From positions 123,225 through 187,224 of IMG/VR virus record IMGVR_UViG_3300008255_000097: a stretch of 64,000 nucleotides of DNA; one strand, 5' to 3'. Shown piece after piece: positions 3,645-58,859 of the stretch; the first letter of the stretch is position 1, and each line of letters opens with the position of its first letter. Made by a program: the position numbers and the translations under genes. Origin of the DNA: a virus. The notes below the pieces were generated by a model that saw nothing but the letters and a program-made list of their open reading frames with translations, had not been told where the DNA came from and did no database searches.

Positions 3645-3974
3645 TTATTGTATGATTGCTTGATATGTCGGGCGAATATGTATTTCTTTACCAGATTTAA
3701 TTAGTTCATCATACACATCTGCAAATTTCTCTGCATAACCAAGATCCACCCATAGAAATGATGCTTCATTCCAGTCAATCGGTTTTTGTTGGCGTTTACT
3801 CTCTTCATATTTAAAGATTTCAATACACTTCATTTGAATCATAAACCGATCATCTAATAAAGAACATCTTACACAAAGTTCTTTTAGAATACAATAATGA
3901 TCCTCCGGACAGTGCTCGCAGAGTTCATTTACCATACTTGCAGGTAAATTTCTTTTCATACAAATATTTATCAA
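3645..3974 (-). CDS. hypothetical Cys-rich protein
   Basis: 109-aa ORF with CEHCPEDHYC...CVRC. Confidence 0.4.
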   Translation of the reverse strand: MINICMKRNLPASMVNELCEHCPEDHYCILKELCVRCSLLDDRFMIQMKCIEIFKYEESKRQQKPIDWNEASFLWVDLGYAEKFADVYDELIKSGKEIHIRPTYQAIIQ

Positions 3975-4561
3975 ATTCGGTTAATAAATCTGGCTGTCTC
4001 TATCTCTTCAAATAACACTTTGTCTGAGAAATCTTCAACTGACTGTTCAATTATATTCGCAGCTTCACAGACACAAAATGAACAGATTTTTTGACCTATT
4101 ATCTCGAGATATTTCATGCCTGGTGGAATAAGTGCACCGCACTCATTACAGTGTAAATTACTGTAATCGAACCAATTAGGGAGTACTCGATCAACTTTAA
4201 GACTAGTGTGTGTTGATTTTCTATCAGTGGATGTTTTCGGTAGACAGAGACAGAGTTGCTCTTGAGGGTATGTTTCATATTCCTCAATTTCAAACATAGC
4301 GAGAATTTCTTCAGCAGTATTGTCAGGTAGTCTTAGTTTCTCTGGCAGTTTACTAACGAATACCTCTGCAAGAGTTTTATCTTTGTATTTAAATCCGCGC
4401 TTAAAGTCAAGAGTATTCACTGTAATCGTTGATTTTCCATTTATTTGTTTTCCTTCAAGGAAAGAGTAGTAGTGGGATCGCTCACGAGAAGATAGGAGTT
4501 TCGGTACCCAGGTTCCGGTCGGGAGATGTTTAATCATGTAGAACATAGTATTACCTTCCAA
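3971..4561 (-). CDS. hypothetical zinc-finger protein
   Basis: 196-aa ORF with CNECG...CSFCVC. Confidence 0.4.
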   Translation of the reverse strand: MEGNTMFYMIKHLPTGTWVPKLLSSRERSHYYSFLEGKQINGKSTITVNTLDFKRGFKYKDKTLAEVFVSKLPEKLRLPDNTAEEILAMFEIEEYETYPQEQLCLCLPKTSTDRKSTHTSLKVDRVLPNWFDYSNLHCNECGALIPPGMKYLEIIGQKICSFCVCEAANIIEQSVEDFSDKVLFEEIETARFINRI

Positions 4562-4615: not shown

Positions 4616-4915
4616 TTATAAGAGAAACTCAAAATATTCCGATATAAACTCATTAGAAGTTAGTACTTTTATAATTTTTTCACTATTAATTAGTATTGTT
4701 CCTTTTTGACTATATATTTGTAGTTCACAAGGATTATCTATCCATTTCCAGTTCGGTGAACTAATAAAGATAAAACCACAATTTTCATTTATAGTTTGTT
4801 CCATAGTAGATAATGCATCTACAGCTTCAACCTTTCCTATAATTTTAATTGTAGGATAATCTGAAACAGTACAAACTATATACTTACCTTGTAGATTTTG
4901 TTGACTGTATCTCAC
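4616..4915 (-). CDS. hypothetical protein
   Basis: 99-aa ORF. Confidence 0.35.
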   Translation of the reverse strand: MRYSQQNLQGKYIVCTVSDYPTIKIIGKVEAVDALSTMEQTINENCGFIFISSPNWKWIDNPCELQIYSQKGTILINSEKIIKVLTSNEFISEYFEFLL

Positions 4916-5176
4916 TGATAAGTCCTTTTATTAACTCTGATTCGGTTATATGTGGTGTCGCATATATGTTTTTAAGAAAGTCGACATAGATCTTCGGTAC
5001 ACATATATTAGTTTTGGGTGTTAAATTATTCGGTGATATAATACATTGATTGCATTTACACATAATATTTCCTTCTTCTATTATTATACATATGATAAAA
5101 GAATATGCAAGGGCAGATTAGACGTAAGAATTTGGAGATTGTTACCAAAAAGAGCTGCCCTTGCATATAAATATTT

Positions 5177-12298: not shown

Positions 12299-12441
12299 TG
12301 GAAGCGCAGGTGGGAATCGAACCATTGAATGTTGAGTTACTAGTTTTCAACATTCCACATCTTAAAGCATACTCAGCTATATTTGCCCGGGCTTGTATAA
12401 CTTTTTAGCTCTACATTCTACCAGTTAAACTACTGCGCCAT
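12299..12441 (-). ncRNA. tRNA-like element (143 nt, atypical or insert-containing)
   Basis: Canonical 5' half (GGCGCAG TA GTTTAACTGGTAGAAT) and 3' end (GGTTCGATTCC...CTGCGCT T CCA) pair as an acceptor stem, but they are separated by about 65 extra nt including a 9-bp hairpin. Confidence 0.3.
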
Positions 12442-37107: not shown

Positions 37108-37494
37108 TTAGTACGCTGGGAGATTACCAGTTATAAGTTTAATTTTGTCAAAATCTGCAGGTCCAATTGATAGCCCTGTTGTCGTAAGAATAGGTCGACG
37201 TAAAATCTCTGAATAGATAGTATCTTTAAACAGCCAAACCGGTAAACTTACCTGGTTTGCTTCCTTAAAAATGATGTCTAATTCATCAAAATTGTTTACA
37301 GCAAGAACTGATATATACGGATCTTTCATCCAATCTCTTACATCAGGAGGAAAAATATCCTTTATAGTTTTATCTGGATTCTCCCAAATCTTCTGGCGCA
37401 TAAAGTGATCTGAAATATGGGCGGCTTGAGCCATTGCTGCCCCCAGTGAAAGGTGCAGATCGCGTCTAATAATAATTACATGTCGTGTATTCAT
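37108..37494 (-). CDS. peptidyl-tRNA hydrolase, PTH2 family
   Basis: VIIIRRDLHLSLGAAMAQAAHIS matches the Pth2 core (DLxMxxGKxAAQxxHA). Confidence 0.6.
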   Translation of the reverse strand: MNTRHVIIIRRDLHLSLGAAMAQAAHISDHFMRQKIWENPDKTIKDIFPPDVRDWMKDPYISVLAVNNFDELDIIFKEANQVSLPVWLFKDTIYSEILRRPILTTTGLSIGPADFDKIKLITGNLPAY

Positions 37495-37983: not shown

Positions 37984-38355
37984 TGGTGGACCCGGGGGGA
38001 GTCGAACCCCCGTCCGTATTAGAAGCCGTCATACTTTCGTTCACATGCTTTGCAATGATTTATCGACCCATGCTCGTCTATCTAAGTTATATGCTTTTAG
38101 TAAGCTGATATAGTTCTTTCCACTATTCAAAGTCCAGGTTCATTTACGGTTCTACCTATCTCCGGTCTTTGTAATGACGCTAATAACACTTACCAAGACA
38201 ATCTCAGTGCGTTTGCGGGCTAGGTATCTCTACGCAGCCATTTTGAGTTCAGTGTCGCCACTTAATTCTTGTACCCGGATTTTTTACGAGGCCAACCAGA
38301 TATCCTCGGCATGCAAATATAATCTCTAACCTATACGTCGAAACCAAACGGGCCC
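37984..38355 (-). ncRNA. ssrA: tmRNA (ssrA)
   Basis: 3' end GGACGGGGGTTCGACTCCCCCGGGTCCACCA (T-arm plus acceptor plus CCA); 5' GGGCCCG pairs with CGGGTCC and includes G3-U70; GCATGCCGAGG...GGTTGGCCTCGTAAAAAA aligns to the PK1 region; candidate tag frame GGC GAC ACT GAA CTC AAA ATG GCT GCG TAG. Confidence 0.8.
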
Positions 38356-40444: not shown

Positions 40445-41077
40445 TTATACCTCCTTTAAATAACTAGTGATTTTAATACCTAACTCTGGATTGTCCTTTA
40501 AAAATCCAACTGCAACATTACAATTATTACAGAGCAATCCTCTTATTTTTCCTGTTTTATGGTCATGATCAACTGCGAGCGACTTATTATTATCTACTGG
40601 AGTCAAACCACATATCTTACATCCACCTTTTTGTTCAGTTAACAGTTCTTCATACTCAACTAATGTTATTCCATACTTTTGTACAAGACATCTATTTTTC
40701 TGAACTCTCCAACCTTTTTTATAGTATTTGTGACGCCTAGTCGGGTTAACTTTTTTTTGTAGTTCTTTTGAACATTCTTTGCAGTGGGAAGCAACTCCAC
40801 TATTACTATCTCCAGCAGTATAAAACTCTATTAATGGTCTTGTTTTTTCACATCCCGGGCAATATTTCATACCCTTCTCTCTATCCTTTCTGGCATCAAG
40901 AGTATATCGTCTTTTAGTTTTTCCTGCTTTTAAAGATTTTGCTCTCTTCCAATCTGTATAACAAACTATACATGAACACTGCCTCCCAGATCGGTTAGAA
41001 TTATCTATATAAAAATCAGTTAATGGTTTTTCTACTTTACATTTTGAACACTTTTTTGTTTTATCGGATATACACAT
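40445..41077 (-). CDS. HNH endonuclease (endonuclease VII-like)
   Basis: LAVDHDHKTGKIRGLLCNNCNVAVGFL. Confidence 0.7.
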   Translation of the reverse strand: MCISDKTKKCSKCKVEKPLTDFYIDNSNRSGRQCSCIVCYTDWKRAKSLKAGKTKRRYTLDARKDREKGMKYCPGCEKTRPLIEFYTAGDSNSGVASHCKECSKELQKKVNPTRRHKYYKKGWRVQKNRCLVQKYGITLVEYEELLTEQKGGCKICGLTPVDNNKSLAVDHDHKTGKIRGLLCNNCNVAVGFLKDNPELGIKITSYLKEV

Positions 41078-41130
41078 ATAAATACTTATGTTCTTGAGCT
41101 CTATTTATATGTGTATATCCACCCCTATCG

Positions 41131-42639
41131 TTAGTCCTTCAATGAAATCTTCTCAATCATATGCACAAGCGCCTTACAGTCCTGCTCCAGCATCTTCATG
41201 ATATCAAAAATCTTATCACTAAATCCGGCAATACAATAGACATCATTCTCTGGGAACATCATGTCACCTTGACCACTAAGATCAAAGCTATAGATCTTCG
41301 GAGTTACATTGAACTTCTTCTTGTATTCCGTAAACTGCTTGGTAGGTGCACCACCAGATATCCACCCTTGCATATCCGAAAAGATAACAATACGGTTGTA
41401 CGCCTTATTTATAGTCTTGAAGATCAAAGGGAAATCTGTTCCATGTCCTACCTGCATCTTTCCACCCGTCACCGATGAAGATGATCCCCAGCCGCTGCTA
41501 TTGTTATGAGTCATAAACTCATCCGCAAGAGCCAGTGCCGGGATTGACGGATTATAATCGATGTACGCCGCACTATTACCGAAGATCATGAAGTCTCCGT
41601 TTTGTGCCTTTGCCATCAGTGCACCAAATATAGACCCGATACCGCGATATGATGTTGGACCATTCCCCATCGATCCAGAGTAATCAACTACAACGAGAGT
41701 ATCACCGTCAAGGACAGGAATATTTGCACAAGAAATATCAAGTGCCTTAGTAAGAGCAACAGTCGCCTTACGAACTCGTGCGGAATCACCCTTGAGGTTA
41801 TTAATTGCAGTTAGAAAGCGGTATGGAAATACCAACGACTTCTTAATCATATGCTCATTAACGAGAACCTCAAGCAACGCGTTGAACGTATCTGCATCAG
41901 CCTGCTCGATAATGTTGTTGATGTTTCGAAGCGCCGCGAAGTAACCGAGCTTCTTCTCTGCAAGCAAAGTCTTCCACGCATCTGCCTTCGCATCTGCCTT
42001 CTCCTCTTCAGTGTTAGAATTCTGACCAGCCGCGGTAAGCTTTGCCTCCCACGTCTCTGTGGAGCGAAGATTATCATTAATAAGACCCTTAAGAGCCTCT
42101 GCATTCTTTTCTGTCGGTGCTGGGCGTACGAGATTAACAACATCTACAAGGGAGACGTTCTTGCCGTCACCACGATACTTTGCTAGCTGGTAACTGTCGA
42201 ACTTTCCAAACGCCTTTGCAAATCCCTTCTTGAGAGAGTTTGGAATTGGCTTGCCATAAGTCCTAAGATAGTAAGCGAGCGTCTCAGTCATATCATCCGG
42301 GCGATAAACAACCTTTGCAAAAAAGTCCTTGGTCCAGTCAGCACCCTTTACGGTATTTGCAACTTCAGCAGCTACAACATGCGTAATTGAACGCATACCG
42401 AATTCATTACGAGCAAAGATTGCAGACTTCGCAAGAAACTCCTTATCAGCAAGCCCTCTGACGAGTTCTTGTGTGCGAGTAACTTGTTCACTTGCCGACC
42501 GATAATATTGATCCTTGATCAATGATGTTAGAAGCAACGAGATAAACTCGAGCTTATCTGTCTGCTTGTATGCTGCTCCACCTGCGCGGTTTATAGTCTT
42601 AGTTGTCTTCTGTGGGATAGCTGAATTGAACCTTGCCAT
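41131..42639 (-). CDS. Ro60-like TROVE domain protein with C-terminal vWA domain
   Basis: N-terminal NRAGGAAYKQTDKLEFISLL resembles TROVE; MIDAS motif LVVVDYSGSMG; 502 aa. Confidence 0.7.
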   Translation of the reverse strand: MARFNSAIPQKTTKTINRAGGAAYKQTDKLEFISLLLTSLIKDQYYRSASEQVTRTQELVRGLADKEFLAKSAIFARNEFGMRSITHVVAAEVANTVKGADWTKDFFAKVVYRPDDMTETLAYYLRTYGKPIPNSLKKGFAKAFGKFDSYQLAKYRGDGKNVSLVDVVNLVRPAPTEKNAEALKGLINDNLRSTETWEAKLTAAGQNSNTEEEKADAKADAWKTLLAEKKLGYFAALRNINNIIEQADADTFNALLEVLVNEHMIKKSLVFPYRFLTAINNLKGDSARVRKATVALTKALDISCANIPVLDGDTLVVVDYSGSMGNGPTSYRGIGSIFGALMAKAQNGDFMIFGNSAAYIDYNPSIPALALADEFMTHNNSSGWGSSSSVTGGKMQVGHGTDFPLIFKTINKAYNRIVIFSDMQGWISGGAPTKQFTEYKKKFNVTPKIYSFDLSGQGDMMFPENDVYCIAGFSDKIFDIMKMLEQDCKALVHMIEKISLKD

Positions 42640-42769
42640 TTTATTCTCCTTAGTTTTTCAGTGAGAAACTCACTGCACTGTTATTACTAAATCCTCCATG
42701 TACCTTACATAGAGGGATTGCACATACCTCTATAATAGAGGCAAGATTGAAAAATGCAACAGGGGGAAC

Positions 42770-43639
42770 TTAGAATATTGCATCAGCAATATCGTAATCG
42801 GTTTCATCGGTGCCGAAATCTTGACTTGTCTGTCCTTTTTTCATAATACCGACCTTTGGAATAACTGTTTTTAGATACATCTTCCAAAGTCTACTGCTTT
42901 GACTGTTTGCATATGAGTCAGGATGGTGTTTCAAATTTTTAATAAATGATTCCAGTCGAGCGTCTCGTTCGATACCTGTTTTTGCAAAATGTTCAATAAG
43001 TGATTCAATTAAACCTATAGCATCATAAACACGCTCTCGGTCTTCTAGGTATGCTACTACTTTATTAAGTAACGTATTTACCAAATCTGGTCTATGTATA
43101 GATAAATGCTTCACATAGGTAGTTATTGACCATATAGGTAAATATTGAATTAGTTCAGACCACTCTTTGCCACGAACAGTTTCATATTTCGCAACATCCT
43201 CTCCGTCAATACTAGTAATCTCCCCTTCTTCACCAGCTAGTTTATTTATTAGAAGTTGCTCTAAATCCTTATACGGCTTCCCGAGAGTTACCATATATTC
43301 AATTAAAAGCTCTGGATTTAGTTTTGGTTCAATTTCAGTCCAGCGATTTTTACCTCTTAGCTCTATATATTTTAACAATAAAAACCCAATATAATCGCCT
43401 AACTCTCCGCCGGTCCTATTCCAATCCGTAATTGCTTGTTTTTCAAGTTGCGGACTAACTATACCGGTACCTAACATATAATTAATATTCTCACTGCCAT
43501 GTAAGAATGGTGTAATTTCTGGCCATGGGTCCATTTCATCGTGTATCAAGCGGCCCACATCGTAATGTGAAATATTACCAGTCTTCTTAAGATGCGTTAA
43601 ATATTTTATAACTAAATCTTCTATTCTATTAGCAACCAC
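42770..43639 (-). CDS. hypothetical protein (frame stays open upstream to about 43864 without an ATG; probably continuous with 43797..44177)
   Basis: 289-aa ORF assigned a GTG start; see the frameshift finding. Confidence 0.45.
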   Translation of the reverse strand: MVANRIEDLVIKYLTHLKKTGNISHYDVGRLIHDEMDPWPEITPFLHGSENINYMLGTGIVSPQLEKQAITDWNRTGGELGDYIGFLLLKYIELRGKNRWTEIEPKLNPELLIEYMVTLGKPYKDLEQLLINKLAGEEGEITSIDGEDVAKYETVRGKEWSELIQYLPIWSITTYVKHLSIHRPDLVNTLLNKVVAYLEDRERVYDAIGLIESLIEHFAKTGIERDARLESFIKNLKHHPDSYANSQSSRLWKMYLKTVIPKVGIMKKGQTSQDFGTDETDYDIADAIF

Positions 43640-46095: not shown

Positions 46096-46842
46096 ATGCT
46101 GTCTCCTATAAATATTTATATGAAAACAATTTTGGATTCTATAGTTAACATTGATCAGTTTCATTCTGCAAAATATGATGACATTGTTGAAGTCGTCTGT
46201 GCACAATGCTCGCAAACATATAAAAGAAAAAAACGAGATATTAAGGCATATCAACGAAGAAATTTATCTGCAAGTGTATGCAAAAAATGTCAAAATGCTA
46301 ATCAAAAAACCGGCTCAAAAGTACAATGCCCAGAATGTGGAAAGTCTAGCTACAAACCGGTAGAGAAGATATCAAAAGGTTACATATTTTGTAATGCTAC
46401 TTGCTCTACCACATACAATAATAAACATAAAGATTACGGATATAGACGCTCAAAACTTGAAAAATGGATAGAAGATCGGTTAATACAGGACTTTCCAATA
46501 CTTGATATTCATTTTAACTCTAAACAAGCAATCGAAAGTGAACTTGATATTTACATTCCTGCTCTCCGTTTAGGTATTGAATTGAATGGTATCTTTCATT
46601 ATGAGCCTATTTACTCACCGAATCAATTTAAACGAATTCAAAATAATGATCAACAAAAAATTATTGAATGCTATAAACGTGGAATTGAGCTCTGTGTTAT
46701 TGATACTTCAACACAAAAATACTTCTCTGATAAAACATCAGAAAAATATTATGCCATAGTCACTAATATAATTAATCGCTGTTTGAAAAGATTGGAGCAG
46801 ACAGAGGGAATCGAACCCCCGACAGGCTTATCACCTGCTTAA
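46096..46842 (+). CDS. Vsr/DUF559-like PD-(D/E)xK endonuclease with N-terminal zinc fingers (homing-endonuclease-like)
   Basis: C-terminal LDIYIPALRLGIELNGIFHY...GIELCVID fits the DUF559 core (D...IExDG.H); CxxC pairs at the N-terminus; lone plus-strand gene in the tRNA array. Confidence 0.5.
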   Translation: MLSPINIYMKTILDSIVNIDQFHSAKYDDIVEVVCAQCSQTYKRKKRDIKAYQRRNLSASVCKKCQNANQKTGSKVQCPECGKSSYKPVEKISKGYIFCNATCSTTYNNKHKDYGYRRSKLEKWIEDRLIQDFPILDIHFNSKQAIESELDIYIPALRLGIELNGIFHYEPIYSPNQFKRIQNNDQQKIIECYKRGIELCVIDTSTQKYFSDKTSEKYYAIVTNIINRCLKRLEQTEGIEPPTGLSPA

Positions 46843-46885
46843 CCGGATTTGCAGTCCGGCGCCTTAGCCACTCGGCCATATCTGC
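46793..46885 (-). tRNA. class II-type tRNA with GCA anticodon (possible tRNA-Cys on a long-variable-arm scaffold)
   Basis: Anticodon arm CCGGA CTGCAAA TCCGG, 22-nt variable arm, T-arm GGGGGTTCGATTCCCTC, discriminator U73, CCA encoded. Confidence 0.5.
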
Positions 46886-49137: not shown

Positions 49138-49186
49138 AAGATGAATAAAGAAAATTTAGTAACAGTGTTTTTTGAAGATAAAGTTC

Positions 49187-49214
49187 GAAGTAACCGCTTC
49201 TATCACTTTTATTC
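49187..49214 (+). repeat. tRNA-trailer hairpin repeat copy a (GAAGTAAC...ATCACT...TATT)
   Basis: Member of an 8-copy family, each directly adjacent to the CCA end of a minus-strand tRNA; extended upstream similarity AGTGTTTTTTGAA..AAAGTTC is shared with copy f. Confidence 0.6.
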
Positions 49215-50348: not shown

Positions 50349-50388
50349 ATATTGAGAGGAAAACAATGAGAGGGTATTTCAAATGTCC

Positions 50389-50424
50389 GAAGTAACTCTA
50401 CATCTCACTTCTCAAATAAATTAT
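50389..50424 (+). repeat. tRNA-trailer hairpin repeat copy b
   Basis: GAAGTAACTCTACATCTCACTTC...AATTATT immediately before the CCA of tRNA-Ile. Confidence 0.6.
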
Positions 50425-51661: not shown

Positions 51662-51692
51662 AATATTGGAAGAAAAGCTAACAGAGGTTTTA

Positions 51693-51760
51693 ATTTCATA
51701 CTAGGAGTTGAACCTAGAATATGAACCTTTTAAGGGTTCTGCATTTTCCAATTTTGCTAT
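51693..51760 (-). tRNA. tRNA-like fragment/pseudogene with Leu(TAA)-type anticodon arm
   Basis: Clear T-arm CTAGGTTCAACTCCTAG and anticodon arm GAACC CTTAAAA GGTTC, but no 5' acceptor partner and no CCA. Confidence 0.3.
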
Positions 51761-51791
51761 ACGATGTATCTCTATTAATCACTATCCAAAC

Positions 51792-51866: not shown

Positions 51867-51912
51867 ATTAAAAGAGAAAATCGACATTGAGTGTGTTTTA
51901 ATTCCCATAATT

Positions 51913-51942
51913 GAAGTAACTCAACATCTCACTACTTTTATT
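51913..51942 (+). repeat. tRNA-trailer hairpin repeat copy c
   Basis: GAAGTAACTCAACATCTCACTACTTTTATT before the CCA of tRNA-Ala. Confidence 0.6.
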
Positions 51943-52017: not shown

Positions 52018-52282
52018 AGAATATTTAAGGATAAAGTTGGCAAAAGTGTTCAGTGTTTTACAACGAACTGTACGTTGTGCGGCTCGTTTTAAGTGTCTCC
52101 AGCTTCCACTTGATACATAGTATCAATTCATGTATTTTTCGAAGTATCTTTTCCCTCAATGCCTTAAACATAACATCATTATATATGCATAAAATATTTA
52201 TGCAAGATCTTTAAAAAATTAATAGAGAAAGTCAAGAAAAAGTGTTTTTCGCGTGCTAACATTACACTAACCCTCGATTAAT

Positions 52283-52310
52283 TGGTTGAGGGTGAAGGAA
52301 TTGAACCTCC
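52283..52310 (-). tRNA. tRNA 3' fragment (T-arm plus acceptor strand plus CCA only)
   Basis: TGG T TGAGGGT GAAGGAATTGAACCTCC, with no anticodon or D arms. Confidence 0.3.
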
Positions 52311-52328
52311 TCTTCGTCATTATGTATT

Positions 52329-52360
52329 GAAGTAACTCTTTCTTTCACTACTATTAAAAC
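52329..52360 (+). repeat. tRNA-trailer hairpin repeat copy d
   Basis: GAAGTAACTCTTTCTTTCACTACTATTAAAAC. Confidence 0.6.
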
Positions 52361-52459
52361 TGGTCGGGAAGGTGGGATTCGAACCCACGAAGCACACACG
52401 CTTAGTGCACTTGTCCGGTTCCAAGCCGGATGAGGAAAGCCAGACTCCTCCACTTCCCG
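52361..52459 (-). tRNA. class II-type tRNA with TGG anticodon (Ser-like scaffold)
   Basis: Anticodon arm TCCGG CTTGGAA CCGGA (E. coli tRNA-Ser(UGA) has CUUGAAA), about 25-nt variable arm, 5' CGGGAAG, T-arm GTGGGTTCGAATCCCAC, CCA encoded. Confidence 0.45.
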
Positions 52460-52792
52460 TAAATTGGCAGTGTGATTTGGTTATCATCATTGGATTTCAC
52501 GATGTTCTGTCTTTGATCTTCGTGTGAGACATAGGAGTCGAACCTAAGCACTCGGGCCCGTGAAAGGATGAGTGGCAACCAGCTTCTCCGATCAAATACA
52601 TCTATCAACTACTTCACCAAATACATCTACCGCATACCGGTAGCGTTCTTTTAACCAGATGGATTTCAATATTTTTTCCTACTTGATATTGCTTTCATTA
52701 TTCTAGAACTAATTACTCACCTCTCAACGTCTATCATCTGTTTTATCTTGCCATAAAGACAAGAGTTATGATTTGAACTATCACACGTAAAA

Positions 52793-52867: not shown

Positions 52868-52935
52868 AAAAATTATTAGAGAAAAGTTGGCGTGAGTGTA
52901 TACTGTGCTAGCCGCTACACTACATGCGGAATTAT

Positions 52936-52981
52936 TGGCCCGCATGCCGGGACTCGAACCCGGCCCAGTCAATTAACAGTT
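52936..52981 (-). tRNA. tRNA 3' fragment (anticodon arm with CTGTTAA loop, T-arm, acceptor strand, CCA)
   Basis: The 5' half is replaced by hairpin repeat copy e. Confidence 0.3.
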
Positions 52982-53002
52982 GAAGTAACTCGTACCATCA
53001 CT
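52982..53002 (+). repeat. tRNA-trailer hairpin repeat copy e
   Basis: GAAGTAACTCGTACCATCACTACTAATAAAT. Confidence 0.6.
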
Positions 53003-53124
53003 ACTAATAAATTGGTGGGGACGAAAGGATTTTCACCTTTAATAACCATATAGGCACCTGGTGTACTGTCAGGCTTGCTCATTAAGTTTCGATACTTAAT
53101 TGCGATGTCCGCTGCCGCGTTCCC
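53003..53124 (-). ncRNA. tRNA-like/structured RNA of unclear type (about 120 nt)
   Basis: CCA, GGGGACG acceptor-like strand and AAAGG ATTTTCA CCTTT T-arm-like hairpin, then an ATTAAG-TTTCGATA-CTTAAT hairpin; no canonical cloverleaf. Confidence 0.25.
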
Positions 53125-53941: not shown

Positions 53942-53988
53942 AATATATGAAGAAAATCGACTAAGAGTGTTTTTTGAATTAAAAGTTC

Positions 53989-54021
53989 GAAGTAACTCTT
54001 TATCTCACTATCATAAAAATT
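53989..54021 (+). repeat. tRNA-trailer hairpin repeat copy f (not followed by a tRNA)
   Basis: GAAGTAACTCTTTATCTCACTATCATAAAAATT with the same upstream extension as copy a. Confidence 0.55.
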
Positions 54022-54085
54022 GTTAGTAAAGAAAATCTAGAAGAGTGTAATCATCACCAAGGTCGGCCGAAGCTGTGGGGGTGTT

Positions 54086-54103
54086 GATAGGAGTCGAACC
54101 TAT
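54086..54103 (-). tRNA. isolated T-arm fragment
   Basis: GATAGGAGTCGAACCTAT between repeat copies f and g. Confidence 0.25.
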
Positions 54104-54110
54104 TATAACC

Positions 54111-54140
54111 GAAGTAACTCATTCTATCACTATTACTAAA
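54111..54140 (+). repeat. tRNA-trailer hairpin repeat copy g
   Basis: GAAGTAACTCATTCTATCACTATTACTAAA before the CCA of tRNA-Phe. Confidence 0.6.
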
Positions 54141-54302: not shown

Positions 54303-54377
54303 TGGTGCCCCCACGGGTAATCGAAACCCGATTTCCAGATTGAGAGTCTGATGTCCTGACCGTTAGACGACAGGGCA
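54303..54377 (-). tRNA. tRNA-Glu(CTC)
   Basis: Anticodon loop CTCTCAA, D-arm GTCTAACGGTCAGGAC, T-arm CGGGTTTCGATTACCCG; acceptor stem pairs at only 5 of 7 positions. Confidence 0.5.
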
Positions 54378-54473
54378 TGAAAATTTAAGAGAAAATTTAA
54401 GAGAAAATCTGAATGAGAGCTTTTTATTGACGGGTGTGTTTACCAGTTTCACCACAAGGCAGCTATGAACCAC

Positions 54474-54512
54474 CAAGGTAGGACTCGAACCTACAATATC
54501 CTGTTTGTTTGA
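54474..54512 (-). tRNA. tRNA 3' fragment (T-arm plus acceptor strand) fused to repeat copy h
   Basis: CACCAAG GTAGGACTCGAACCTAC, with no CCA, followed by the repeat hairpin. Confidence 0.25.
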
Positions 54513-54538
54513 AGTAACTCATACATCACTACTTAAAT
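54513..54538 (+). repeat. tRNA-trailer hairpin repeat copy h
   Basis: GAAGTAACTCATACATCACTACTTAAATTA. Confidence 0.6.
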
Positions 54539-58559: not shown

Positions 58560-58640
58560 AGAGTTAAATTGGTACGCCCGAAAGGACTCGAACCTCTATC
58601 CCCAACATTATTAGTGTTGGCGCTCGCGAAATATGTCGTC
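58560..58640 (-). tRNA. tRNA-like gene of uncertain identity (anticodon loop CTAATAA; no clean 5' acceptor)
   Basis: CCA, ACGCCCG strand, T-arm AGAGGTTCGAGTCCTTT, 6-bp anticodon-type stem. Confidence 0.3.
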
Positions 58641-58859
58641 TATTATCTAGGTACATCGATAATATCTAACAATAAGCCTAGATAATAAGGACTAAAAAAT
58701 ATTGATATCATTACCAAAAATGAGAAATAAGTCTTTAGCTATAATCTCGGGTACCACCGATCATATATACTGTACCTTATTTCCCATTTTCAGTTCTGAG
58801 TATCTCAAAGTTAGCGCTTACTACCATCCATTGAGCTACAGGCGCATTTTTTTGTTCTA

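Follow-up and report, generated by a model that had tools for sequence, protein, structure and literature searches.

The DNA analysed here is a stretch of 64,000 nucleotides (positions 123,225 to 187,224 of the IMG/VR virus record IMGVR_UViG_3300008255_000097), referred to below as the window. It encodes a Ro60 protein and carries a tRNA array in which ten small RNAs with a common frame, the putative Y RNA partners of this protein, are embedded. The conservation of Ro60–Y RNA particles extends from bacteria to humans; they are a major autoantigen in lupus and Sjögren's syndrome, and the role of the variable module of the Y RNA is largely open. The source of the window is a very large phage. 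The exact Ro protein recurs on public metagenomic contigs, three of which fall in the 0.2–1 Mb class. About 41 tRNA genes and a transfer-messenger RNA (tmRNA) are present in the window, almost all on the minus strand. The Ro locus has no megablast match among GenBank phages, and distant blastn of the tRNA-array region gave tRNA-level matches only; the phage has no close sequenced relative.

The Ro open reading frame (ORF; 41131..42639, minus strand) starts with ATG, is preceded at 7 nt by an AAGGAG ribosome-binding site (RBS), and encodes 502 amino acids comprising a TROVE region, predicted to form a HEAT-repeat ring, and a C-terminal vWA domain with a metal-ion-dependent adhesion site (MIDAS). 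The Pfam TROVE model (PF05731) matches with E=4.5e-18 and 66.1 bits (cutoff 23), and the precomputed annotation of the public contigs likewise gives TROVE. The Pfam vWA_Ro60 model taken alone matches weakly (14.5 bits, E=0.034); the MIDAS motif reads VVDYSGSMG, and all of the 16 homologues compared retain D319, S321, S323, and D422. With the single sequence, phmmer finds the Ro60 of Thermus phage phiLo (9L5Y/9KOP) as the best solved relative (E=2.7e-20), followed by human and Xenopus Ro60, and aligns DYSGSMG of the window with DVSGSM of phiLo Ro60. A profile of the 16 homologues matches four solved Ro60/Rsr proteins (five Protein Data Bank sequences) over nearly the full length, to positions 463–474 of 481: phiLo Ro60 (9l5y, E=4.8e-64), Deinococcus radiodurans Rsr (2nvo, E=1.9e-29), Xenopus Ro60 (1yvp, E=1.3e-28), and human RO60 (9nen, E=5.4e-28). 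These matches establish the identity of the protein; judged by them, the ORF encodes a genuine full-length Ro60 orthologue, and their extent along four solved rings suggests the closed ring (doughnut) fold. The NCBIfam Rsr equivalog NF041674 scores 17.6 bits against a cutoff of 900, which is below membership and places the protein in a divergent phage Ro60 clade rather than with bacterial Rsr proper. Homologues are found by tblastn in 89 phage records, many annotated as "Ro-like RNA binding protein"; the protein itself is therefore not new.

The 5′ flank of the gene (42640..42769, minus strand) contains three hairpins, CAGUGAGUUUCUCACUG at 42675-42659, CCUCUAUUAUAGAGG at 42741-27, and CCUCUAUGUA-AGG-UACAUGGAGG at 42715-42693, and then the RBS. 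The 130 nt fold beyond chance (z=-3.73, 1/200 shuffles). Promoter and terminator scans of the flank stay at chance level. Rfam at the gathering threshold over the whole window places no Y_RNA or YrlA near the Ro gene, and at E<=10 over 36–48 kb neither family is found. R1 and R2, two covariance models of the RNA family described below, give no accepted match on the flank (R1 10.7 bits, E~9). By folding and model searches the flank is a structured leader without a recognisable Y RNA. A preliminary description of this DNA had assigned the Ro60 architecture (TROVE plus the vWA MIDAS motif) and had seen no obvious Y RNA in the flank, and our results bear out both; a TROVE score above the cutoff speaks against a protein with vWA only. 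The first two hairpins were named there and do exist, while the third was overlooked. On the 3′ side, between the Ro stop and the next gene, lies a perfect inverted repeat (41066-41120, minus strand; 19 nt as read, 20 pairs as folded, 17-nt loop; z=-6.6, 0/200 shuffles), the 3′ arm of which includes the ATG (41077) of an Endo VII-type nuclease ORF (40445-41077). The repeat could be a terminator or processing site of Ro or a translational lock on the homing-type nuclease. An Rfam match to mir-3149, present on both strands of the repeat, is spurious.

YrlA is recognised by GNCGAA(N)G close to its 5′ terminus and by a module resembling a tRNA, with V region, T arm, acceptor-like stem, and D arm in this order (Chen et al. 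2014, PMC4201824). T-loop motifs left unclaimed by tRNA finders were searched for across the window. Among the orphan T arms, several on the minus strand of the array precede an acceptor-like hairpin and, beyond it, a D arm, as in YrlA; each of these comes after a recurring AGUAGUGA...GAGUUACUUC. The segment GTTACTTC occurs 10 times in the window (2.1 expected), with eight occurrences in 5.4 kb of the minus strand; a half-frame pattern is found nine times on the minus strand and never on the plus strand, against about one expected. Extraction and manual segmentation, checked against the sequence, gave eight copies (e1–e8), and relaxed searches added e9 and e10. All ten lie on the minus strand, like Ro, within the tRNA array at 49.1–54.5 kb and 6.5–12 kb upstream of Ro. 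The frame consists of a helix P1 (5–7 bp) that pairs the 5′ and 3′ ends, a UAGUGA strand, a helix P2 (9–10 bp), UACUUCRR, and a variable apex; the 3′ side returns through an A-rich joiner ending in AAC or ACAC, P2′, GAUUUUCU, and P1′. UAGUGA (6 nt) and GAUUUUCU (8 nt) thus face each other in an asymmetric internal loop. The UAGUGA strand occupies the position of the YrlA GNCGAA Ro-binding motif, and the 5′ joiner UUACUUC, which like the 3′ joiner is conserved, includes the YUAY of YrlA. With its terminal helix, conserved internal loop, and variable second module, the family has the general architecture of a Y RNA. Except for e4 and e10, the copies are separated from neighbouring tRNAs by 0–9 nt on the 5′ side and 2–6 nt on the 3′ side (18 nt for e8). 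The UGA...GA loop was also considered as a k-turn or C/D box, but 6 nt opposite 8 nt is not the geometry of a canonical k-turn.

Four copies (64–72 nt) carry a short, YrlB-like apical hairpin. In e1 (49143..49214; R1 56.7 bits, R2 57.2 bits), P1 abuts the CCA of the tRNA upstream, and 5 nt separate its other end from tRNA-Thr; e2 (50352..50415; R1 44.2 bits, R2 47.2 bits) lies between tRNA-Ile and tRNA-Arg; e3 (51869..51940; R1 62.8 bits, R2 68.5 bits) is 1–2 nt from tRNA-Ala and tRNA-Val; and e6 (53946..54015; R1 57.2 bits, R2 69.7 bits) follows e7 by 7 nt and precedes tRNA-Leu by 4 nt. A permuted T-acceptor-D tRNA mimic in the order of YrlA is clear in e4 and e5 and less perfect in e8. The long copy e4 (52219..52357; R2 58.3 bits) has a T arm, an acceptor stem with six of seven pairs and a C-A mismatch, A, an encoded CCA, a 6-nt linker, UA, and a D arm; a run of six U directly follows its P1. 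The same order in e5 (52873..53010; R2 52.4 bits) comprises the T arm GCCGG/CCGGC, a perfect 7-bp acceptor CAUGCGG/CCGCAUG, G, CCA, AUAAUU, UA, and the D arm; Rfam YrlA (RF02553) aligns here at 19.5 bits (52905-52963, model positions 31–81) with all pairs canonical. The head of e7 (54023..54139; R2 57.6 bits) combines a T arm with an acceptor-like stem and lacks a D arm, and that of e8 (54395..54538; R2 48.6 bits) a T arm, an imperfect acceptor-like stem, and a D arm. A tandem duplication of its 3′ loop/P1 segment (54377-54408, minus strand; UUUUCUCUUAAAU UUUCUCUUAAAU) extends downstream, ahead of tRNA-Glu, and gives two alternative P1 closures. The diverged copy e10 (52024..52168; R2 20.8 bits, E=0.076), read from the sequence, has the loop CAUUGA/AACUUUAU, 7/7 bp in P1, 7/8 bp in P2, and a 95-nt apical insert. 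Between e4 and e10, ahead of the latter, is a near-consensus, sigma-70-like promoter sequence (TTGCAT-N16-TATAAT, 52205-52178, minus strand).

In e9 (51666..51789; R2 42.7 bits, E=1.7e-6), the frame surrounds a non-permuted tRNA-like module with a D-like hairpin, an anticodon-type arm (loop CUUAAAA), and a T arm. ARAGORN called this core (51692-51767) tRNA-Leu(taa), but it lacks the features of a tRNA-Leu: the acceptor is paired at 5/7 positions, the variable loop is 5 nt (AUAUU), and there is no long variable arm. The Rfam tRNA model aligns to the core over positions 3–68 only. From these features, e9 is probably a mis-annotated Y RNA. The preliminary description had suggested that tRNA-like oddities next to the Ro gene might be the partners. 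The substance of that suggestion stands, in that ten elements of the array, four with T arms skipped by tRNA finders and one called tRNA-Leu(taa), are the candidates; the adjacency to the gene does not. The YrlA covariance search that it proposed for 37–46 kb would have been negative, on account of both its narrow range and the remoteness of the model.

The structure is established by covariation. In an alignment of e1–e8 with two copies from the uncultured phage LR745206 (L001; see below), 92.4% of the cells are paired, as against 63.7% in shuffled alignments (0/500 reach the observed value) and 39–50% in slid controls. Compensatory changes are seen at 14 of the 17 pairs, and P1 is 100% paired with all 7 positions varying. 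In 55 distinct copies from other phages, none of which was used in deriving the structure, 91.0% of the cells are paired (60.0% in the control), with 256 compensatory cells versus 72 and up to six pair types per position. The first model, R1, missed the long copies of the window and all copies in Gordonia phage Trax and crAss001, because of long inserts and loop variants and not because the copies are absent. R2, a covariance model made from 58 copies of other phages and none of the window, recovers the long copies and copies in crAss001; in the window it finds e1–e9 at 43–70 bits (E<=2e-6), e10 marginally, and nothing else.

The same frame accompanies Ro genes in other phages. The closest GenBank relative, LR745206 (a 635-kb uncultured phage), has a Ro protein 49% identical to that of the window and two co-oriented frame copies immediately 5′ of the gene, with the loop UAGCGA. 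The closest IMG/VR Ro (locus L009, 50.4% identity) has four tandem copies upstream of the gene, with loops UAGCGA, UACUAA, UGGUAA, and UAGUGA, and two of these score 44.8 and 33.2 bits with Rfam YrlA. In Trax (L003, MK967378.1), the 500 nt ahead of the Ro-like gene contain four copies with this architecture. The GUUACUUC and AAACAC joiners are shared, and the loop AUGCG(A/U)AG contains the published CGAA core; Rfam YrlA gives one of the four 44.1 bits (E=9e-8). Three tiny ORFs annotated in Trax, gp91, gp92, and gp93 (132–153 nt), overlap these four RNAs (3927-4337) and are probably not protein-coding but mis-annotated Y RNAs. In locus L029, a single element is matched by the frame model and by YrlA alike. 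In crAss001 (L123, MH675552.1), a 905-nt unannotated gap after the TROVE gene gp96 (95965-96869) contains at least five frame copies with a UAGUGU loop variant, two of which score about 50 bits with R2 and two of which have T arms. Vibrio phage TDDLMA (L002) has a 333-nt non-coding gap (4668-5000) upstream of its Ro-like gene with AUGCGAAAAUAG, a CGAA-type motif; no UUACUUC frame and no R1 match were found in this gap, which may hold a different type of Y RNA.

IMG/VR was scanned by RNA motif alone, giving 119 loci, of which 67 are positive with the covariance model (CM) and 52 are CM-negative and serve, as chance matches, as an internal control. A TROVE gene is present in 48 of the 67 CM-positive and 4 of the 52 CM-negative loci (Fisher p=5.7e-13, odds ratio 30), which establishes the genomic association of the family with TROVE. 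All copies in the TROVE-bearing CM-positive loci (59/59) are on the TROVE strand, at a median distance of 195–318 nt, and 35 of the 59 are upstream of Ro. As 30 of these 48 loci have no tRNA gene at all, the link to TROVE does not run via tRNAs. Among the 19 CM-positive loci without TROVE, 13 are tRNA arrays with copies flush between the tRNAs; the layout of the window therefore recurs. The window is the one confirmed case of array-embedded copies with Ro in the same phage. In the tRNA arrays of other phages the frame also surrounds modules of D arm, anticodon arm, and T arm (L071 3845-3938, L063 2392-2501, L089 9877-9986, L015 1680-1789), with differing anticodon loops. ARAGORN calls the one in L071 "tRNA-His(atg)", probably again a mis-annotated Y RNA, and calls of this kind in phage tRNA censuses may be Y-RNA heads.

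The window RNAs resemble the YrlA and YrlB RNAs of Salmonella Typhimurium, Mycobacterium smegmatis, and mycobacteriophages (PMC4201824, RF02553) in being co-oriented with the Ro60 gene, in the terminal stem formed from the 5′ and 3′ ends, in the purine-rich motif on the 5′ strand, and in the YUAY (UUAC in the window) ahead of the V region. The order T arm, acceptor-like stem, UA, D arm is that of YrlA, the pairing of a tRNA-like RNA with a shorter hairpin RNA is common to YrlA/YrlB genomes, and the M. smegmatis YrlA, an RNase P substrate, likewise has a 7-bp acceptor stem. Unlike YrlA/YrlB, the window has the UAGUGA loop, ten copies instead of two, residence in a tRNA array, an encoded CCA (e4, e5), and the additional non-permuted D-anticodon-T and T-only heads. 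The Ro60 of phiLo (Hu et al. 2025, PMC12135203; 9L5Y, 9KOP), by sequence the closest solved structure to the window Ro (about 24% identity by tblastn), is also a phage Ro60 with co-oriented partner RNAs of phage origin. Its ligands are the two Yrl RNAs of the phage and the host PNPase, which is attenuated (PMC12135203), and this ternary complex may serve as a functional model for the putative ribonucleoprotein (RNP) of the window. Yrl1 and Yrl2 of phiLo differ in being two simple CGAA hairpins directly upstream of the gene, with no reported tRNA-like module and no tRNA array. The Rsr-Yrn1-PNPase complex of D. radiodurans (RYPER) combines a Ro ring with a modular Y RNA, one module for Ro and the other for the effector, as is proposed here. 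In the Salmonella rsr-yrlBA-rtcBA operon, Ro is near an RNA ligase as in the window, RtcB there versus an ATP-dependent Rnl type (PF09414) here. Both of these systems are bacterial, whereas that of the window belongs to a phage.

Taken together, these data make it likely that the partner Y RNAs of the window Ro are the ten RNAs e1–e10. We base this on the homology of the frame to copies that score with YrlA (Trax, L009), the position of the LR745206 copies directly upstream of Ro, the association with TROVE on a uniform strand in IMG/VR, and the recurrence of the array layout in 13 loci. Several observations weigh against it. YrlA genes share the strand of Ro and are no more than about 4 kb away from it (PMC4201824); the window copies share the strand, but at 6.5–11.9 kb. 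The best Rfam YrlA score in the window (19.5 bits, e5) compares with a gathering threshold of 69, so the curated model would call no window copy YrlA. A literal search for GNCGAA(N)G over 33–50 kb finds sites only away from the elements and from Ro, all but one within listed ORFs; the motif is absent from e1–e10 as read (the scan stopped at 50 kb), with UAGUGA instead. Single-sequence folding energies of the copies are unremarkable (z -1.7 to +1.7), and the structural support is therefore covariation and not thermodynamics. The copy e10 is weak (E~0.08). The IMG/VR loci are partly non-independent, with near-duplicates and many contigs of about 100 kb from one sample, and the scan pattern skews the loop statistics toward UAGUGA. 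The absence of TROVE from the 13 array loci covers the retrieved stretch only and not the rest of each contig. Expression, processing, Ro binding, and the downstream partner in this phage are what we infer from sequence.

The elements might instead be punctuation of the tRNA array (processing structures or spacers), or independent small RNAs matured together with the tRNAs, and have no functional tie to Ro, with Ro acting without a dedicated Y RNA on damaged or misfolded tRNAs and rRNA. In D. radiodurans, Rsr free of Y RNA takes part in the maturation of rRNA (PMC4201824), and the flush position between tRNAs (0–9 nt), the distance from Ro, and the 13 array loci with no Ro in the stretch would all suit such a role. 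We nevertheless consider it unlikely: the frame stands beside TROVE in 48 loci, with no exception to the shared strand, and 30 of these have no tRNA; the closest Ro homologues (LR745206 and L009) keep copies directly upstream of Ro; and a pure processing signal would need neither a conserved internal loop nor tRNA mimics of the YrlA type. The true partner could also be the 130-nt region 42640-42769, as a lineage-specific stem-bulge-stem Y RNA like Yrl1/2 of phiLo, or this region could be a leader autoregulated by Ro. It does fold beyond chance (z=-3.7), the Y RNAs of LR745206, L009, and Trax are upstream of Ro (as are 35/59 copies), and the phiLo Yrls are simple hairpins upstream of the gene; but the motifs CGAA, UAGUGA, and UUACUUC and a terminal helix-loop-helix frame are all missing from the region, R1 reaches only 10.7 bits (E~9) and R2 finds nothing, no homologous element was found in relatives, and the same nucleotides also have to carry the RBS and any promoter. 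We regard this as improbable.

The long copies invite a third reading, in which e4 and e5 represent tRNA genes in circularly permuted or split form, e9 is an odd but real tRNA-Leu(UAA), and the frame is a processing scaffold. A cut at the acceptor end, with trimming back to the encoded CCA, would then leave a tRNA-like molecule that can be charged. The acceptor stem (perfect 7 bp in e5, 6/7 in e4) with discriminator and encoded CCA, the AU linker, and the canonical T and D arms are what such a gene would show; ARAGORN does call e9 a tRNA, and RNase P cuts the M. smegmatis YrlA at the equivalent site. However, e4 and e5 have no anticodon arm, with P2 and the Ro-type loop in its place, e9 is without the long variable arm of tRNA-Leu and has an acceptor of 5/7, four copies without any tRNA module still keep the frame, and the architecture is that of YrlA. 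We know of no YrlA that acts as a decoding tRNA. For lack of an anticodon arm, the permuted-gene reading of the long copies was rejected, and we hold this explanation as a whole to be very improbable.

The genes around Ro include PTH2 (37108-37494), the tmRNA (37984-38355), a PD-(D/E)XK nuclease, an RNA ligase (PF09414; 39544..40443, minus strand) two genes downstream of Ro, and the Endo VII-type nuclease; no PNPase gene was seen in this neighbourhood. The ligase, PTH2, and tmRNA fit an RNA-repair and translation-rescue island, and the neighbourhood suits such a role. It is comparable to the bacterial rsr-yrlBA-rtcBA operons and to what the remarks of Iyer et al. 2021 (PMC7824862) on TROVE in jumbo phages describe, namely a large tRNA complement, an RNA ligase, and a TROVE protein; those remarks name no phage partner RNAs, whereas the candidates in the window are located and modelled. 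The sole sizeable plus-strand ORF listed in 37–47 kb (46096-46842, 248 amino acids) has a Cys-rich, zinc-finger-like N-terminus and overlaps a 93-nt tRNA-Cys call on the minus strand (46793-46885); it may be a homing endonuclease tied to an interrupted tRNA.

The tRNA complement has further irregular members. In a 330-nt segment between two tRNAs (52460-52792, minus strand), neither a tRNA nor an RNA family is called; a good T arm (UUAGGUUCGACUCCUAU, ~52545-52529) is present there without a Y-type frame. Two tRNA 3′ halves on the minus strand (T arm, acceptor, and CCA), at ~58560-58700 (...GGUUCGAGUCCUUUCGGGCGUACCA) and ~12300-12440 (...GGUUCGAUUCCCACCUGCGCUUCCA), are left uncalled by ARAGORN and Rfam, and the latter has a D-arm-like sequence about 110 nt upstream; both may be tRNA genes split by long inserts or introns. 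Directly upstream of e5 (~53014-53100, minus strand), a tRNA-like 3′ end whose T loop is atypical (AAAGGUGAAAAUCCUUUCGUCCCCACCA) has no call. At 52343-52459, ARAGORN calls a tRNA of 96–100 nt on both strands (Arg on the plus strand, Pro on the minus strand); the Rfam tRNA model scores the minus strand at 48 bits, with a 23-nt extra arm.

Our data suggest a mechanism in which e1–e10 would be co-transcribed with the tRNAs; an internal promoter-like site stands ahead of e10. Given the 0–9 nt between the copies and adjacent tRNAs, the RNAs would be freed by RNase P and the tRNA 3′-end machinery. RNase P cleaves the M. smegmatis YrlA at a site equivalent to the acceptor end of e4 and e5, and the 7-position acceptor stem followed by an encoded NCCA in these two copies is the configuration cleaved there. 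Ro would then dock on the P1/loop/P2 frame; Y RNAs typically depend on Ro for accumulation. The variable head may gate the Ro cavity, tether Ro to a partner such as the host PNPase or tRNA-handling enzymes, or both. PNPase is the partner of Ro in D. radiodurans and Salmonella. The RNP may act in RNA surveillance or repair beside the RNA ligase, tmRNA, and PTH2. The heads seen are permuted (T-acceptor-CCA-D), non-permuted (D-anticodon-T), T-only, and plain hairpins; by our own reading of the sequences, the non-permuted heads have the anticodon loops UAA in the window and GCU, UUG, and GUU in other phages. As a tentative and rather doubtful extension, phage Y RNAs could be a modular adapter library, with a constant Ro-docking frame and interchangeable tRNA-mimic heads. 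The tRNA-processing machinery would turn them out in quantity from tRNA arrays, and each head would mimic a particular tRNA, either as a decoy for host defence nucleases that target tRNAs or to recruit repair or modification enzymes. If this were true, Ro would be coupled to the tRNA-repair arsenal of the phage (RNA ligase, tmRNA, PTH2) as an anti-defence system.

Ro60 proteins and Y RNAs of phages have been described before, from 22 phages with YrlA (Chen et al. 2014, PMC4201824) and from phiLo (2025). As far as the literature shows, five features appear to be new: a frame variant out of reach of the curated YrlA model; ten copies in a single genome; their location in a tRNA array kilobases from Ro; a range of tRNA-mimic heads, including non-permuted ones mis-called by tRNA finders; and the breadth of the family, from jumbo phages to crAss001. 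There may be some overlap with the phage YrlAs of Chen et al. A Ro gene without a neighbouring Y RNA may have partners hidden in an array, and absence near the gene is not absence. A large phage Y-RNA family lies under the detection limit of the curated YrlA model, including in jumbo phages and in the cultured gut phage crAss001, and some phage "tRNAs" (e9, L071) and small "hypothetical proteins" (gp91-93 of Trax) are probably its mis-annotated members. With a constant docking frame and swapped heads, these RNAs are a natural experiment in which the function of the head is directly testable.

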